From NCBI RefSeq assembly GCF_058153355.1, contig NZ_CM177019.1: a stretch of DNA of 64,000 nt. The stretch is one strand, 5' to 3'. Of the stretch, positions 19,126 to 57,976 are shown piece after piece. The first letter of the stretch is position 1. Each line of letters opens with the position of its first letter. The notes beneath the pieces are model-generated. The model was given only the letters and a program-made list of their open reading frames with translations. It was not told the DNA's origin and did not search any database. Position numbers and translations under genes: made by a program.

Positions 19126-20574
19126 TTATTCTCCATGCTCATTTTTCTTCAGCTTGCGCATCAGAAGCCACATACGTACTGTCCTGACTTTTAAATCTTT
19201 ATCAGAGACGGATTCCTTCACCAGATCAGCATGATGCTGATAGCCATTAAAGAAGACGTTCAGCGCAACGGCGCTAAGGGTTGCGAGCATAATGCCGCTA
19301 TGCAGCAACGGTTGCAGTACGGCCGGTAACTTAGAAAAGAAATCGTGAGAGAGCGTCGGAGTCATGCCAACGCCGAGACTGATCGCCACAATATAGAGGT
19401 TGTAACGGTTAGTGGTGTAGTTACAGCGCGACAGAATTCGAATCCCCGTCGCCAGTACCATGCCGAACATCACCAGCCCTGCGCCGCCAAGCACAAATTG
19501 CGGAATCGAGGCTACCAGCACCGCCATTTTGGGCACCATGCCAAACATGATTAATATGATCCCCGAAGAAATACACACCCAGCGACTATGAACGCGAGTC
19601 ACGCTAACCAGGCCAACGTTTTGAGAAAATGACGTGTGGGGGAAGCTGTTAAACGTTCCGCCTATCATTGTCCCTACACCATCGACACGCAGCCCGCGAA
19701 TAATATCGTGCGAAGAGAGTTTACGACCGACTATTTCACCCAGTGCCAGGAACATCCCCATCGACTCGATAAACACGATGATTAACACAGCGGTCATGGT
19801 TAGAATAGAAACGGGGTCAAATACCGGCATACCAAACGACATTGGGGTGACAATCGCAAACCACGAAGCATCATGTAGCCCGGACAAATTGACTTCATTC
19901 ATCATCCACGAAAGTAAAAAGCCAAATACAATCCCCAGTAATACGGCGACGTTGGACATAAATCCTTTCGCATAGCGAGTAATGAGCAAGATAAAAATTA
20001 AGACGGCAAAGGAGATACCTAAATAAACGGGATTACCATATTGCGGATTCCCTTCACCTCCAGCGGCCCAGTCAATACCGACCTGAATAATGCTAAGCCC
20101 GATAGAAGTAATAACCACACCGGTAACCAGTGGCGGGAATAAAGGCATTAAGCGACCGATAAGTGGTGCTAATAATGTGGTGATAAATCCCGCGGCGATA
20201 GTGGCACCAAATATCCCCAGCAGGCCGATATCCGGGTTCATGCCAATGGCTATCATTGGTGTTACAGCAGCAAAGGTTACCGACATAATCACCGGCAGAC
20301 GGATCCCCATAAAGCGGCCGATACCGATACATTGTAATAATGTGACGATCCCGCAGCAAAAGAGATCCGAGCTAATGAGCATCGCAATAGCTTCTTTTGA
20401 GAGGCCCAGTCGGTCACCAATCATAAGAGGAACAGCGACTGCACCTGCGTACATTACAAGGACGTGTTGCAGACCGAGTATGATCAGCTTTCCTGGTGAT
20501 AATATGCGGTCAACCTCATCAGTTGGGCGGTCTTGCCCTGAAGATGAGGGAAGTTGGGAATCTATGGCGCTCAT
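19126..20574 (-). CDS. uacT: uric acid permease (NCS2 family)
   Basis: ORF 19126..20703; start assigned to the internal Met (MSAIDSQLPSSSGQDRPTDEV...), 482 aa, multi-TM transporter. Confidence 0.9.
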   Translation of the reverse strand: MSAIDSQLPSSSGQDRPTDEVDRILSPGKLIILGLQHVLVMYAGAVAVPLMIGDRLGLSKEAIAMLISSDLFCCGIVTLLQCIGIGRFMGIRLPVIMSVTFAAVTPMIAIGMNPDIGLLGIFGATIAAGFITTLLAPLIGRLMPLFPPLVTGVVITSIGLSIIQVGIDWAAGGEGNPQYGNPVYLGISFAVLIFILLITRYAKGFMSNVAVLLGIVFGFLLSWMMNEVNLSGLHDASWFAIVTPMSFGMPVFDPVSILTMTAVLIIVFIESMGMFLALGEIVGRKLSSHDIIRGLRVDGVGTMIGGTFNSFPHTSFSQNVGLVSVTRVHSRWVCISSGIILIMFGMVPKMAVLVASIPQFVLGGAGLVMFGMVLATGIRILSRCNYTTNRYNLYIVAISLGVGMTPTLSHDFFSKLPAVLQPLLHSGIMLATLSAVALNVFFNGYQHHADLVKESVSDKDLKVRTVRMWLLMRKLKKNEHGE

Positions 20575-21009
20575 CAGTGTTTCTCCTTTCGCCCGCCAGA
20601 GTAAAAAGCAACCGTTTACGTTATTGAAACTGTCTAAACATATGCTCGTGGAGTGCCAGTTTTTGCGAGGAAGGGGAGTTAGAGACAGGAATTGCGGAGG
20701 CAATCACATAATCGTGGTTAAACCACGAAAATGAGAAGAGAACCTGACAATGGAATTATCTGTAATTTTCTCATATTGATATTTTATTAATCATTCTGGC
20801 ATGTCGCACTCTCGCATTTAATCGTTTTTATCTGGATAGCGCTCTTTTGGTCGGCAATGTTGAAATAATGAAAGCGGCACAGATTGAGGGGCAATAATTT
20901 GAACTCAGTCGCAAAATTATAATTAAAACGGTCATGCTACCTAATATATGCCCGTTTATTGCATCGCGAACTTTGAGAAGACATAACTCATTAAATGAAA
21001 GGGATGCAA

Positions 21010-22929
21010 ATGAATAAGTTTATCGCTGCTGAAGCTGCGGAATGTATAGGCTGTCATGCTTGTGAAATTGCCTGTGCGGTGGCACATAATCAAGAAAACT
21101 GGCCGCTGAGTCACAGTGACTTTCGACCGCGTATCCACGTTGTAGGGAAAGGCCAGGCTGCGAATCCGGTGGCCTGCCATCATTGCAACAATGCCCCTTG
21201 CGTTACGGCTTGTCCGGTTAATGCTCTGACTTTCCAGCCCGATAGCGTACAACTGGACGAGCAAAAATGTATTGGTTGTAAAAGATGCGCAATCGCTTGC
21301 CCCTTTGGCGTCGTTGAGATGGTCGATACGATTGCGCAGAAATGCGACCTTTGTAACCAGCGCAGTTCCGGCACGCAAGCCTGTATTGACGTATGCCCAA
21401 CACAGGCGTTACGGCTGATGGACGATAAAGGGTTGCAGCAGATAAAGGTGGCCCGCCAGCGCAAAACGGCAGCAGGAAAAGCGTCATCAGACGCTCAGCC
21501 ATCTCGCAGTGCAGCGTTGCTCCCCGTTAACTCGCGTAAAGGCGCAGATAAAATTTCAGCGAATGAACGGAAAACCCACTTTGGCGAAATTTATTGCGGG
21601 CTGGATCCACAACAAGCGACTTATGAGAGTGACCGCTGTGTTTATTGCGCCGAAAAAGCTAACTGCAACTGGCATTGCCCGCTGCATAACGCTATTCCGG
21701 ATTACATCCGTCTGGTGCAGGAAGGAAAGATTATTGAAGCGGCAGAACTTTGCCACCAGACCAGTTCCTTACCAGAAATCTGCGGCAGGGTATGTCCACA
21801 GGACCGTCTTTGTGAAGGCGCATGTACTTTGAAAGATCACTCTGGCGCAGTCTCTATCGGGAATCTGGAACGCTACATCACCGATACCGCGCTGGCGATG
21901 GGCTGGCGTCCTGATGTCAGCCATGTTGTTCCCCGTATCGAAAAAGTGGCGGTGATTGGCGCAGGGCCTGCAGGGTTAGGGTGTGCTGATATTCTGGCGC
22001 GCGCAGGAGTTCAGGTTGATGTCTTTGATCGCCATCCAGAAATTGGCGGTATGCTGACTTTTGGCATACCTCCTTTCAAACTCGATAAAACGGTATTAAG
22101 CCAGCGGCGAGAGATATTCACCGCAATGGGAATCGACTTTCATCTTAACTGTGAAATTGGCCGCGATATTACCTTTAGCGATTTAACTTCTGAATATGAT
22201 GCAGTTTTCATCGGCGTGGGGACTTACGGGATGATGCGAGCAGATCTGCCGCATGAAGATGCGCCCGGTGTCATTCAGGCTCTACCGTTCCTGACTGCCC
22301 ATACCCGCCAGCTCATGGGGTTGCCGGAGTCTGAAGAGTATCCGCTGACGGATGTGGAAGGTAAGCGAGTTGTGGTATTGGGCGGTGGCGATACGACCAT
22401 GGATTGTTTGCGGACTTCCATCCGCCTCAATGCCGCCAGCGTGACCTGCGCCTATCGTCGTGATGAAGTCAGTATGCCGGGCTCGCGCAAAGAGGTGGTC
22501 AATGCGCGCGAGGAAGGTGTCGAGTTTCAGTTCAATGTTCAGCCGCAATATATCGCTTGTGACGAAGATGGGCGTTTAACTGCGGTGGGCCTGATTCGTA
22601 CCGCTATGGGGGAGCCGGGGCCGGATGGTCGCCGTCGTCCTCGTCCGGTAGCGGGTTCAGAGTTTGAGCTGCCCGCCGATGTTCTGATTATGGCCTTTGG
22701 TTTCCAGGCGCATGCCATGCCGTGGTTGCAAGGCAGCGGAATTAAGCTCGATAAATGGGGCCTGATTCAAACCGGGGACGTCGGGTATTTACCCACCCAG
22801 ACGCATCTGAAAAAAGTCTTTGCTGGTGGTGATGCAGTTCATGGCGCGGATCTGGTCGTCACTGCAATGGCTGCAGGAAGGCAAGCGGCGCGCGATATGT
22901 TAACTCTGTTTGATTCGAAGGCATTGTGA
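21010..22929 (+). CDS. ygfT: Fe-S and FAD/NAD(P)-binding oxidoreductase (glutamate synthase small-subunit-like)
   Basis: 639 aa from [24 protein letters not shown]...; N-terminal ferredoxin-like Cys clusters and C-terminal dinucleotide-binding GAGPAG motif. Confidence 0.9.
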
Positions 22930-52706: not shown

Positions 52707-52780
52707 GCGGGCGTAGTTCAATGGTAGAACGAGAGCTTCCCAAGCTCTATACGAGGGTTCGATTCCCTTCGTCCGCTCCA
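52707..52780 (+). tRNA. glyU: tRNA-Gly (anticodon CCC)
   Basis: 74-nt sequence gcgggcgtagttcaatggtagaacgagagcttcccaagctctatacgagggttcgattcccttcgtccgctcca with cloverleaf arms and encoded CCA; the island starts immediately 3' of it. Confidence 0.92.
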
Positions 52781-52944: not shown

Positions 52945-54309
52945 ATGCTGCTTTCAGACCTTGCCATCAGGCGCGCGAAGCCGAAAGAAAAGGCTTATAC
53001 ACTCAATGACGGTAACGGGCTTTCGTTGCTCATTGAGCCGAACGGTTCGAAAGGGTGGCGACTGCGCTACAGGTTTGCAGGAAAGCCCAAAATGTTGTCG
53101 TTGGGTGTGTACCCTGATGTGTCTCTGTCTGATGCCAGGGCGGCAAGGGATGAGGCTAAAAGGCTTCTTGCTGGTGGTATAAATCCAAGTGAGGCCAGAA
53201 AAGCCCAAAAGCGAGAACAGGCGAGCAAATTTGGCAATACTTTTGAGGGTATCGCTCGCGAATGGTACGAAAAGCGGATCGACAGGTGGTCATCGTCATA
53301 CGCCGAGGAAATGATCGAGACGTTTGAAAAAGACGTTTTTCCGTACATTGGCGGTAGGCCGATCGCAGAAATTAAGCCGATGGAATTGCTGGCGGTTCTT
53401 TCCCGTCTTAATGACCGTGGTGCGACTGAAAAATTGCGTAAGGTTCGCCAGCGATGTGGCGAGGTGTTCCGGTACGCAATCATCACCGGACGCGCCGAAT
53501 ATAATCCAGCCCCTGACCTGGTGAGCGCATTTGCTCCACATAAAAAAGAGCATTACGCCTGTTTGAAGGCCGATGAACTGCCGGAATTTTTCCGCGTTTT
53601 TAATACGTACACCGGAAGCCAGATCGTCAAACTGGCAATGCGGCTATTAATTCTGACAGGTGTCAGACCCGGGGAATTACGGCAGGCAGAATGGCGGGAG
53701 ATCGATTTTGATAATCGTTTGTGGGAAGTGCCTAAAGAACGAATGAAGATGCGCCGTCCGCATTGCGTGCCATTACCAGAACAGGCGATAAAAATACTGG
53801 AGCAGTTAAAAAACATGACAGGTCAGTATCAGTTTATTTTCCCCGGTCGTATTCACCACAGTAAACCAATGAGTGAAATGGCAATGAATGTGCTCATTCG
53901 TCGTATTGGCTACGCCGGGCGCGTTACTGGTCATGGATTCCGGCACACCATGAGCACCATTTTGCATGAGCAGGGCTATAACACCGCGTGGATAGAGACA
54001 CAGCTTGCGCACGCCGATAAAAACTCAATTCGTGGCACATACAACCATGCGCAATATCTGGATGGCAGACGCGAAATGCTCCAGTGGTATGCCGACTATA
54101 TGGATTCGCTCGAGCATGGCGGAAATGTGGTGCATGGTGAGTTCGGAAAATGCGGGGGACTGGTTGAGTATACAGTAGTAGACTTTGAGCGACTAAAAAC
54201 GGCTGTGTCTAGGGTCGCTCCTGAAAACCCGTACACCTCTGCGGGCTGGCACAGCCACTATGGTAGAGGGCGCGAGGTGACGCGTGATCGATATTGCCGA
54301 ATTACTTAA
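52945..54309 (+). CDS. int: tyrosine-type site-specific integrase, P4-like (tRNA-associated)
   Basis: ORF 52906..54309; start assigned to ATG 52945 with GGAG 8 nt upstream (MLLSDLAIRRAKPKEKAYTLNDGNGLSLLIEPNGSKGWRLRYRF...); C-terminal catalytic residues (HGFRHTMST, Y in GTYNHAQY). Confidence 0.9.
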   Translation: MLLSDLAIRRAKPKEKAYTLNDGNGLSLLIEPNGSKGWRLRYRFAGKPKMLSLGVYPDVSLSDARAARDEAKRLLAGGINPSEARKAQKREQASKFGNTFEGIAREWYEKRIDRWSSSYAEEMIETFEKDVFPYIGGRPIAEIKPMELLAVLSRLNDRGATEKLRKVRQRCGEVFRYAIITGRAEYNPAPDLVSAFAPHKKEHYACLKADELPEFFRVFNTYTGSQIVKLAMRLLILTGVRPGELRQAEWREIDFDNRLWEVPKERMKMRRPHCVPLPEQAIKILEQLKNMTGQYQFIFPGRIHHSKPMSEMAMNVLIRRIGYAGRVTGHGFRHTMSTILHEQGYNTAWIETQLAHADKNSIRGTYNHAQYLDGRREMLQWYADYMDSLEHGGNVVHGEFGKCGGLVEYTVVDFERLKTAVSRVAPENPYTSAGWHSHYGRGREVTRDRYCRIT

Positions 54310-55563: not shown

Positions 55564-56364
55564 ATGAAATTTCCAAAAACGCCCATACAGGGGCAGGGCT
55601 TCGTTCGGCTTGAAAACCAGAATCTGCAAAATTTTGGCAAAATTATCCCGGTTATTTCCGGCGTTATTGGCGGGCGTGAAACCAATATTGTTAGCGCCAG
55701 AGCGTTGCATAAGGCGCTCGGGGTAGGCCGTGATTTCACAACCTGGATTAAAGTACGCATTGATGAGTACGGATTTAAAAAGGGCGTGGATTTTGAATTC
55801 GTAGAAAATTTGACCTCCCCCAATCCGGTGAGCGCAAAATCTCGCCAACGTATAGAGCACGACTACCTGAGCACTATCAACATGGCGAAAGAACTGGCGA
55901 TGGTCGAACGCACCGAACAGGGCCGCGCCGTTCGTCAGTATTTCATCAAATGCGAGGAGGAGCTACACAAGGTAGCGCCTGTGCGTTCCGCAGCGTTACG
56001 CCGGGAACTGAAAGCCCGTATCACTGTTGCCAGCTACTTTAAGCCAATGTGCGCCGCGCTGGAGGCGTACCGGGCAGAACTGGGTAAAAACACTCTACAG
56101 CACCACTACACCACGGAAGCTAATATGCTGGCGCGTATCGTGCTGGGTGGCATGACTGCAAAACAGTGGGCACTGGCGAACGGCATCACAAGCGAACCAC
56201 GCGACCACATGAGCACGTTGCAGCTTGAGCACCTTTCTTACCTTGAGCAGAGCAATATCACGCTGATTGAGTTAGGCCAGGACTACCACCAGCGGAAAGC
56301 TGAATTAATTCGTCTTTCGCAGCGCTGGTTAGCCCGTCGCATGGAGGAAAACAACCATGTGTAA
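55564..56364 (+). CDS. phage antirepressor-like protein (AntA/KilAC-type domains)
   Basis: 266-aa ORF with SD aggag; N-terminal region resembles AntA/Bro-type antirepressor domain; assignment by recall, moderate confidence. Confidence 0.6.
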   Translation: MKFPKTPIQGQGFVRLENQNLQNFGKIIPVISGVIGGRETNIVSARALHKALGVGRDFTTWIKVRIDEYGFKKGVDFEFVENLTSPNPVSAKSRQRIEHDYLSTINMAKELAMVERTEQGRAVRQYFIKCEEELHKVAPVRSAALRRELKARITVASYFKPMCAALEAYRAELGKNTLQHHYTTEANMLARIVLGGMTAKQWALANGITSEPRDHMSTLQLEHLSYLEQSNITLIELGQDYHQRKAELIRLSQRWLARRMEENNHV

Positions 56365-57018
56365 CGCTCTGACCGTTACAAAAAGAGAAAGCGCCCCGTT
56401 GCCGGAGCGCCTTTGTGAACGAATAGCCTACTGCGCCATATTGCTTACTGTCTACGAGGCAGATTATAGCGTTGTGGTCGCACAGAGTGAAGGCACTGAT
56501 CACCGTTACTACAGCACGCCAGAAATGCAGAATATTTTGCTGCAAAATGCCGCTGGCCACGCTGTCCGGAAAGCAAAAAATTTTGCTGGTGGCGCGACTG
56601 ATACGATTTTTTCTGGTCGCCAGGTGCTGATCAATCTGATGTCTGATTTCGTTCTGGATAAAACAAAGGCGACCGCAGAGGGCCACCAGTGGGAAAGCTA
56701 CACACTTGAACACATCGCCAACAATGCCAGATTTGCGGCTGGTGGGCAATGTGATCAGTGTGTTGGCTTGCTGGTGGGCTGTTCGTCTGGTTCAGTCCGT
56801 TGCCATGCATGGAGTGAACGCATTTTCCAGGAATACTCTTTGAGGTACTTCTCAAGAGCAAACGCACACGGGGCGAATCTCTCCGGTTCATGTTCGTTTA
56901 CCGCATTTTTGCGTTGTTTTTTCCTGGATGAGGATAATTTCTTTAATGATTTGTCAGTCATCGTATATACCTGTAACCCTGTGCGCCACAGTTCACTGCA
57001 CCACGGCGCTGATGGTGA

Positions 57019-57198
57019 TTACTCTGATTCTTTGGCCTTGCGGCGCTGGCGGCGTTTGATCTCACCTTCAAGTGCCGAAACGATAAATTGTCCAGTGCTT
57101 TCGCCTTCTTCCTTTAAACTTTCTACAGCGTCAGCTATTGCATGGGGTACTCGTGCCTCAAGTTTTTTTGATTTTCCATTAACTGCTTTCGTTGCCAT
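57019..57198 (-). CDS. ribbon-helix-helix (CopG/Arc-like) DNA-binding protein
   Basis: 59 aa MATKAVNGKSKKLEARVPHAIADAVESLKEEGESTGQFIVSALEGEIKRRQRRKAKESE; beta-strand then two helices typical of RHH; SD aaggga upstream; divergent from the promoter at 57260-57288. Confidence 0.6.
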   Translation of the reverse strand: MATKAVNGKSKKLEARVPHAIADAVESLKEEGESTGQFIVSALEGEIKRRQRRKAKESE

Positions 57199-57219
57199 AT
57201 CTGATTCCCTTGTTATTAG

Positions 57220-57299
57220 GTGGCTGACAGTATACACACAAGAAAATGGAAAAACACTATTGACGTGGCTGACACCTGTTACTAGTATAGTGGCTGACA
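57220..57299 (+). promoter_or_regulatory. near-consensus sigma70 promoter (TTGACG-17 bp-TAGTAT) overlapped by three direct repeats GTGGCTGACA
   Basis: -35 ttgacg 57260-57265, -10 tagtat 57283-57288; direct repeats at 57220-57229, 57265-57274 and 57290-57299. Confidence 0.6.
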
Positions 57300-57562
57300 C
57301 CTTTATTAAGGTAATCGATGAAAAGACAAAGCCCGCAGGCGCTACCAACACCAACGGGCTTCTAACCACCAACGATAGAAAGCGTATCGAGGTAGCTATG
57401 TTAAATCATACCACACACCCGCAAGGGCGGGACTCGCACAACCTGAATAAAGCGGGGGTAAAAAACCAGTTGATCGCCACTGCCAGCCAGGGCTATGATT
57501 TATCTGCACCAGCAAAATCTGGTGCCCGGATTGGCGTCCTGAAAATTCTGAAGGCGACATAT

Positions 57563-57584
57563 GACGCGCCGAGCGTCTTTTTTT
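57563..57584 (+). terminator. intrinsic terminator-like hairpin plus T-run inside the leader downstream of the promoter
   Basis: gacgcgccgagcgtc (5-bp stem) followed by ttttttt. Confidence 0.45.
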
Positions 57585-57787
57585 ATGTCGTAGGTCTGAC
57601 TCACCCATTTTTTGGGCGTTGGTGTATAATCCAGCGCCTTTGTCAATCAATGGTGGCTCAGGCGGGGGCTTCTTCGGAAGCGCCGGTATCCTTCAGAGCC
57701 GGTTACGCCAACCCTGTCTGGGCTACCACCAGCGAAATTGGCGTTTCCGGTGGTAGCGTAACCTGCTATCTGAAGGAGGCTGCCGAC

Positions 57788-57976
57788 ATGGCTACTACCC
57801 CTACCCTTGTACATTCTCAAACCGTCTTTCTCTGGCGCTTTATCGCCCTGAGCACAGCACAACCGCGCGTGATTCACATCGTGGCCACCAGCGAACAGGA
57901 AGCCCGCCAGCAATCTCCGGCTGGCTGCGTGATGGTATTCGCCGCCCGTATTCGTCAGGAGGTGGGCCATGATTAA
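57788..57976 (+). CDS. small hypothetical protein (62 aa) of the island early operon
   Basis: ATG 57788 preceded by SD gaaggagg; stop overlaps the next start (atgattaa). Confidence 0.55.
   Translation: MATTPTLVHSQTVFLWRFIALSTAQPRVIHIVATSEQEARQQSPAGCVMVFAARIRQEVGHD

Follow-up and report, generated by a model that had tools for sequence, protein, structure and literature searches.

In the immI region of phage P22, the ribbon-helix-helix (RHH) repressors Mnt and Arc act at the divergent promoters Pmnt and Pant from an operator lying over the promoter core and are autoregulated, each of them binding one dyad operator of ~17-21 bp as a tetramer. Stl of the SaPIs and Rpr of the Gram-positive PICIs are helix-turn-helix proteins, encoded by small repressor genes at the boundary between integrase and replication functions, divergent from the operon. 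Both are inactivated by helper-phage proteins (PMC6092414). The Omega repressor of pSM19035 (PDB 1irq, 2bnw) is an RHH protein that recognizes short repeated units, direct or inverted (title of 2bnw), which are contiguous 7-bp heptads bound cooperatively, while immunity of the P4 CI and P1/P7 C4 type depends on RNAs encoded upstream of an icd-like gene (c4-icd-ant in P1 immI; the cI region in P4). For Gram-negative PICIs, the searchable literature describes the activator AlpA and RNA immunity alone: induction of EcCICFT073 requires AlpA, and overexpression of AlpA by itself leads to excision and replication (PMC6092414); a global repressor in these elements has been called "unclear" (Fillol-Salom et al., 2018; PMC6092414); and C4 and isrK immunity RNAs have been placed in a "Bro zone", without the YlcI protein considered here (Mageeney et al., 2023).

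We describe a 64-kb stretch of DNA (hereafter the window, meaning the whole stretch analyzed) in which a 59-aa protein of the YlcI family is quite likely to be the RHH repressor of a Gram-negative PICI, with three 11-bp operators of the form GTG-N5-CAC at divergent promoters and probable repression of its own gene. A role like that of Stl and Rpr would be in keeping with the divergent position of ylcI at the integrase/replication boundary and with the candidate operators over the promoter, although YlcI differs from both in its predicted RHH fold and has no sequence relation to them. The divergence of an RHH repressor gene from its target promoter recalls P22 immI, but the YlcI locus has three distinct 11-bp sites at distances of 45 and 22-36 bp and in variable orientation, and no sequence similarity to the P22 proteins is detectable. 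Omega offers a further RHH precedent for short repeated units, though its heptads are contiguous whereas the YlcI sites are 11-bp units separated by 11-34 bp.

An island of the EcCICFT073 type and its RNA cassette

The island adjoins tRNA-Gly(CCC) (52707-52780) and runs from the integrase gene through the int-alpA RNA, two ORFs, the genes for AlpA and an AntA/Bro-type protein, orf68 and ylcI (both leftward) and the control region to the isrK and C4 RNAs, the icd-like gene, an IS66-family element, small ORFs, a DUF4222 gene and a D5/P4-type primase gene (Table 1). This order is collinear with EcCICFT073, and int, alpA and primase follow one another at an attachment site as in Gram-negative PICIs; by gene content and order we assign the element to the Gram-negative PICIs, EcCICFT073 type. 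EcCICFT073 itself has int, alpA, a Bro/AntA remnant, leftward ylcI, the icd-like gene, small ORFs, the DUF4222 gene and the primase gene. Its YlcI gene, C_RS30120, is accompanied by two GTGGGCCACAC sites, at the -35 and at the start, and by GTGGGGGACAG beside the gene. EcCICFT073 lacks the isrK/C4 cassette, and the island in the window is set apart by two insertions, an IS110-family element that interrupts the primase gene and an IS66-family element that splits the operon. Thus interrupted, this island has probably lost the ability to replicate, though its switch is intact; its right-hand part extends past the end of the window.

Table 1. Positions of features of the island and its control region within the window.
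Feature	Position	Strand	Remarks
int-alpA RNA	54202-54269		At 3' end of integrase gene; Rfam 45.5 bits (gathering score 35.8)
Terminator ending the leftward unit	56687-56668	-	Terminator scan
68-aa ORF (orf68)	56755..56961	-	Downstream of ylcI, same strand; phrog_21027, function-less label
ylcI-family gene (59 aa)	57019..57198	-	Candidate repressor; predicted ribbon-helix-helix
Shine-Dalgarno AGGGAA	57205..57210	-	6 nt upstream of ylcI ATG; read from sequence
Site 1 (O1), GTGGCTGACAG	57220..57230	+	Imperfect copy; over expected leftward ylcI transcript start
Candidate -10 TATACT of leftward ylcI promoter	57229..57234	-	Inferred from conserved motif
Rightward promoter TTGACG-17-TAGTAT	57260..57288	+	9/12 consensus; faces away from the 59-aa gene
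-35 TTGACG; -10 TAGTAT	57260-57265; 57283-57288	+	17-bp spacer
Site 2 (O2), GTGGCTGACAC	57265..57275	+	Overlaps -35 and spacer
Site 3 (O3), GTGGCTGACAC	57290..57300	+	~-5 to +6 of rightward promoter
Short inverted repeat ACCTT-N4-AAGGT	57299..57312	+	Predicted 5' end of rightward transcript
Leader hairpin GCCCG...CGGGC, then TCTAACCAC	57331..57371	+	Conserved
P4/P1-type RNA immunity cassette	57470..57733	+	Between rightward promoter and icd-like gene
Cassette promoter-like site	57470-57499	+	Promoter scan
isrK (seqA-like)	57506-57583	+	Rfam RF01394, 68.8 bits
isrK terminator	57563-57577	+	Terminator scan
C4/CI RNA	57646-57733	+	Rfam RF01695 (C4) 79.9 bits; c4-a1b1 32 bits
icd-like gene	57788..57976	+	First intact gene of the rightward operon; NCBIfam NF033153, 69.3 bits
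IS66-family element	58075-60438		Three ORFs; splits operon behind icd-like gene
DUF4222 gene and P4/D5-type primase gene	60853..62189	+	Replication module; order as in EcCICFT073
IS110-family element, transposase gene	62248-63423		Truncates primase gene

Between the control region and the icd-like gene lies an RNA immunity cassette in which isrK and C4 both score above the Rfam gathering threshold, giving the P4-like combination of a CI/C4 RNA with a seqA/isrK target. The DNA of the cassette resembles the P4 cI region and the immunity regions of SfV and Stx phages. This layer is separate from, and downstream of, the YlcI switch and occurs in few YlcI loci: among those scanned for it, the window and one E. 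coli relative (L001) have the cassette, and EcCICFT073, L002 and 16 others do not. In the loci that lack it the icd-like ORF opens with a peptide that is kept in the window as a short ORF, MLNHTTHPQGRDSHNLNK (57398-57454), and the cassette (~57450-57840) has the look of having been inserted near the start of what was once a longer icd-like ORF, at its 5' end. Since the similarity to phages covers the cassette alone, we regard it as an add-on to a more widespread protein switch. A P4 or phage origin of the YlcI module itself was considered and rejected, as no homologue of YlcI was found in 50,697 phage records, P4 included, and the DNA similarity to phages is confined to the isrK/C4 part. Among the ORFs scanned no match to the P4 core genes psu, delta, sid and epsilon was found, the right half of the element lying outside the window. 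The preliminary description of this DNA had likened the locus to the immunity switches of satellite phages; the likeness to a satellite repressor switch appears sound on comparative grounds, but the P4 model fails, as P4 has no YlcI, and the fit is with the Gram-negative PICIs.

Several annotations in and around the island should be read with care. A 539-aa ORF (56357-57976, +), antisense to ylcI and extending over the RNA genes, is almost certainly not a real gene; a similar ORF is annotated in RefSeq as a 270-aa "Icd-like" CDS overlapping ylcI in L001 (6226-7038). The PHROG label "transcriptional repressor" on Icd-like proteins may, we infer, trace to the P4 cI ORF that overlaps the CI RNA. 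In EcCICFT073 (our locus L075) the genes for YlcI (20473-20652) and the Icd-like protein (20852-21052) bear the high-numbered tags C_RS30120 and C_RS30125, which suggests that they were annotated late, and this may be why publications on EcCICFT073 are silent on both. The int-alpA RNA recurs in four related loci. At the extreme end of the window two identical 78-aa ORFs (63558-63794 and 63763-63999) lie 205 bp apart, indicating a tandem repeat.

The YlcI protein and its control region

The 59-aa protein belongs to the NCBIfam family NF041551, YlcI/YnfO (score 64.4 bits, curated cut-off 30; E 7e-18), and its homologues carry the same name in RefSeq. The family is uncharacterized, and the PHROGs assignment of the protein (phrog_949) bears a function-less label. 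No Pfam family, those of RHH proteins included, was matched at E <= 0.1, no significant sequence match was found in the PDB, and Foldseek returned nothing better than E > 7. A tethered-dimer model (pTM 0.71) gives each half one strand (residues 10-18) and two helices (19-28 and 35-59), predicting the beta-alpha-alpha arrangement with N-terminal strands paired in the dimer that is typical of RHH proteins. The Gly-X-Ser/Thr turn that opens helix 2 in such proteins is present as G32-E33-S34-T35 and is nearly invariant in 38 homologues. Within the strand R16 is invariant and positions 11-15 vary. We accept the RHH fold as a prediction, one that agrees with the preliminary description; in default of any Pfam, PDB or Foldseek match, membership of the RHH group derives entirely from the predicted fold.

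The control region contains three exact plus-strand copies of GTGGCTGACA (57220-57229, 57265-57274 and 57290-57299), and a scan of both strands of the window found no fourth, against a chance expectation of ~0.12 exact 10-mer matches by simple arithmetic. The match between copies 2 and 3 continues to GTGGCTGACACCT, and copy 1 reads GTGGCTGACAG. The 11-bp sites have the form GTG-N5-CAC. The final -35 base and the adjoining 10 bp of spacer fall within copy 2; copy 3, starting 2 bp past the -10, lies over the expected transcription start; and copy 1 stands 22 bp from the ATG of ylcI (57198, minus strand). The repeats and their geometry, with two copies on the promoter and one beside the start of the RHH gene, are thus exactly as first described. 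No further operator copies above chance were found elsewhere in the island, and inspection by eye found no LexA box near site 1.

The rightward promoter is best judged by its conservation. A promoter scan returned three promoter-like sites in 1.9 kb where 1.8 are expected, and a single match is accordingly not significant; among 42 related loci, 41-42 have TTGA(C/A/G)N in place with TAnnnT 17-18 bp downstream. The promoter noted in the preliminary description is therefore conserved in site and position, but given the scan statistics the term "near-consensus" was generous for 9 of 12 matching bases. It does point toward the primase operon, as had been said, yet it does not feed it directly, because the isrK/C4 cassette, the icd-like gene and IS66 intervene. 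For the leftward promoter the motif CAGTATAC (TATACT on the minus strand) is conserved in ~40 of 42 loci whatever their operator class, from which we infer that it is the -10 of ylcI; no convincing -35 accompanies it, and the promoter scan missed it. GGAG-like motifs stand at the place matching the Shine-Dalgarno sequence in homologous loci.

The predicted leader of the rightward transcript is also structured. A longer version of the inverted repeat at its 5' end, CACCTTGA...TCAAGGTG, is found in EcCICFT073 and many other loci. For the hairpin that follows, an alignment of 28 loci shows compensatory changes in six of nine predicted pairs; the TCTAACCAC motif behind it is near-invariant, and no Rfam family matches the hairpin.

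Conservation of the three sites and their co-variation with YlcI

Scanning one genome per species gave 71 loci from many genera of the Enterobacterales. In nearly all, read in the orientation of the window, the ATG of ylcI is followed after ~20 bp by site 1 (GGTG-N5-CAG), then by TATAC, an A-rich stretch of ~27 bp, TTGA(C/A/G)N overlapping site 2 (GTG-N5-CAC), the TAnnnT -10 and site 3 (GTG-N5-CACC). Sites 1 and 2 are 44-46 bp apart across ~70 loci (45 bp in the window), and sites 2 and 3 are 22-25 bp apart or, in two large classes, ~35 bp (up to 36). In most classes site 1 departs from the other two by 1-3 nt. In several classes site 3 is inverted, as would be expected if a symmetric dimer read the sites in double-stranded DNA, and not if they were an RNA signal. 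The gene always lies at the boundary between the int/alpA and icd/primase modules, divergent from icd/primase and, in all loci, convergent with alpA. Of 5,426 complete E. coli genomes, at least 493 have a copy of ylcI plus control region that can be recognized at the DNA level, always on the chromosome and in up to four copies per genome. In two loci with the core TTCAA (L017 and L026) an additional, fourth site stands by the -35, 16 bp upstream of site 2.

These positions bear on whether YlcI could instead be an activator or dual regulator, stimulating its own promoter from site 2 while repressing the rightward one, or activating rightward transcription. Lambda CI at PRM and P22 Mnt at Pmnt are precedents for such activation; the leftward promoter lacks a -35, as is typical of activator-dependent promoters, and site 2 lies ~35-45 bp upstream of the putative leftward start. 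However, a conserved promoter with sites at ~-30 to -20 and ~-5 to +6 is laid out for repression: site 2 sits in the rightward spacer, site 3 on the rightward start and site 1 on the leftward one, and the variation of site 3 in spacing (22-36 bp) and orientation is hard to square with activation from one face of the helix. We consider activation or dual regulation unlikely.

The 5-bp core falls into ~20 classes (for example GCTGA, GGCCA, TCCGA, TATTT, GTGTT and CGATT), and the three sites of any one locus share a single core. When the site-2 sequence of each of 14 class representatives was matched to the site-1 and site-3 zones of its own and of the other loci, the mean distance was 2.07 mismatches for self against 7.80 for cross comparisons, and in 100,000 permutations the observed total was never attained. 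Where one class extends over several genera, its sites and promoter hexamers have stayed invariant and the spacers have diverged. L002 is 96% identical to the window in YlcI and identical in its operators, while its primase and integrase are at 40% and 26%; conversely L001, with primase at 68% and DUF4222 at 81%, has a YlcI at 66% and a different operator core. Three loci (L040, L013 and L060) with AlpA 81-86% identical to that of the window belong to other operator classes. Judged by these comparisons, operator class follows the YlcI variant and not primase, integrase or AlpA.

On the protein side, residues 12 and 14 of the strand, which face outward, differ from one operator class to another, and each recurring strand motif pairs with one core (KKLEARV with GCTGA, QALKARV with GGCCA, QMTTVRI with TATTT, LQVSVRL with GTGTT), with the exception of QKIQARA, which pairs with two different cores. 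Mantel tests of operator distance were weak and gave the beta strand no preference (r 0.14 for residues 1-18, r 0.22 for residues 19-50), and the specificity residues of YlcI are thus putative. Part of the co-variation reflects shared ancestry, given that the gene and its operators are physically adjacent.

The same comparisons weigh against the sites being read by another protein of the island (AlpA, the Icd-like protein or Bro/AntA) while YlcI does something else. AlpA is a known activator of EcCICFT073 genes (PMC6092414), and the adjacent icd-like gene is linked to the sites as well. Yet AlpA proteins at 79-86% identity are found beside different operators, and the same operators recur where no AlpA similarity is detectable; loci without a detectable icd or antA homologue still have the sites; and the NCBIfam name of the Icd-like family denotes a cell-division inhibitor, not a DNA binder. 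We hold this to be improbable, more so than activation. Still less probable is an antitoxin role for YlcI in a type II toxin-antitoxin pair whose repeats serve autoregulation alone. An adjacent, co-conserved toxin gene was sought and not found: homologues of orf68, the ORF downstream of ylcI, are confined to three E. coli relatives (L001, L002 and EcCICFT073) and absent from every other scanned locus, in many loci alpA converges within ~250-400 bp and leaves no space for a toxin gene, and both perfect sites lie on the opposite promoter. Least probable of all are replication-origin iterons read by the island primase/Rep, which direct repeats flanking an A-rich stretch superficially resemble, since operator class is independent of primase type and EcCICFT073 has a separate CTGTCTACC cluster right behind its primase gene and its operators nowhere else in the island.

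From the three-site layout, the co-varying cores and the tie between operator class and YlcI, we therefore read the protein as the probable repressor of the icd-primase operon. The preliminary description had proposed the repeats as operators of the 59-aa protein for the replication operon and for its own gene, a proposal to which the comparison, with ~70 loci keeping the layout while the core co-varies, lends strong support.

YlcI as a putative maintenance repressor

Repression by YlcI would work as follows. Bound to the two perfect sites, one over the -35 and spacer and the other over the transcription start, the protein would exclude RNA polymerase from the rightward promoter, and the operon of the icd-like gene, small ORFs, DUF4222 gene and primase gene would be silent in the quiescent island. 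The weaker site 1 by the ylcI -10 suggests negative autoregulation: as this imperfect site sits just downstream of the TATACT element, YlcI would probably limit its own synthesis at higher concentration. In the window the isrK/C4 cassette, with its own promoter-like site, may form a second, RNA-based lock downstream.

Since overexpression of AlpA alone is sufficient for excision and replication of EcCICFT073 (PMC6092414), any repression by YlcI must be bypassable. The convergence of alpA and ylcI in all loci, together with the AlpA data, makes rightward AlpA-driven transcription running into ylcI one candidate route of relief; an anti-repressor, supplied by the helper phage or by the island's own Bro/AntA gene, would be another. 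A link between the PICI AlpA and the AlpA antiterminator of Pseudomonas was considered and set aside, homology not being established in the paper examined.

We offer more tentatively, as a reading that may or may not extend to the family as a whole and to which we give slightly less than even weight, that YlcI-family RHH proteins are unrecognized maintenance repressors of Gram-negative PICIs, EcCICFT073 included, that their at least ~20 mutually exclusive operator specificities constitute immunity groups, and that helper induction removes or bypasses the repressor through convergent transcription driven by AlpA or through an anti-repressor. Tandem YlcI elements with different operator classes occur on one contig 4.6 kb apart (L003/L047) and in another pair 5.2 kb apart (L028/L030). 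Counted by hand over 11 multi-copy genomes, one of 22 pairs of co-resident islands shares an operator class where ~2.9 would be expected, a difference that is not significant.

An RHH repressor acting on a divergent promoter is an ordinary type of mechanism and already familiar. In the openly searchable literature, which leaves subscription-only papers aside, we found no YlcI/YnfO or RHH protein linked to PICIs, and the family, with its ~20 classes of specificity and its occurrence in the model PICI, appears to be undescribed. The ~20 natural pairs of protein and operator provide a ready set for studies of how RHH proteins read DNA and for orthogonal repressors. PICIs and related satellites carry virulence and defense genes between enterobacteria, and the three-operator switch in the prototype EcCICFT073 gives these elements a concrete, directly testable repressor candidate.
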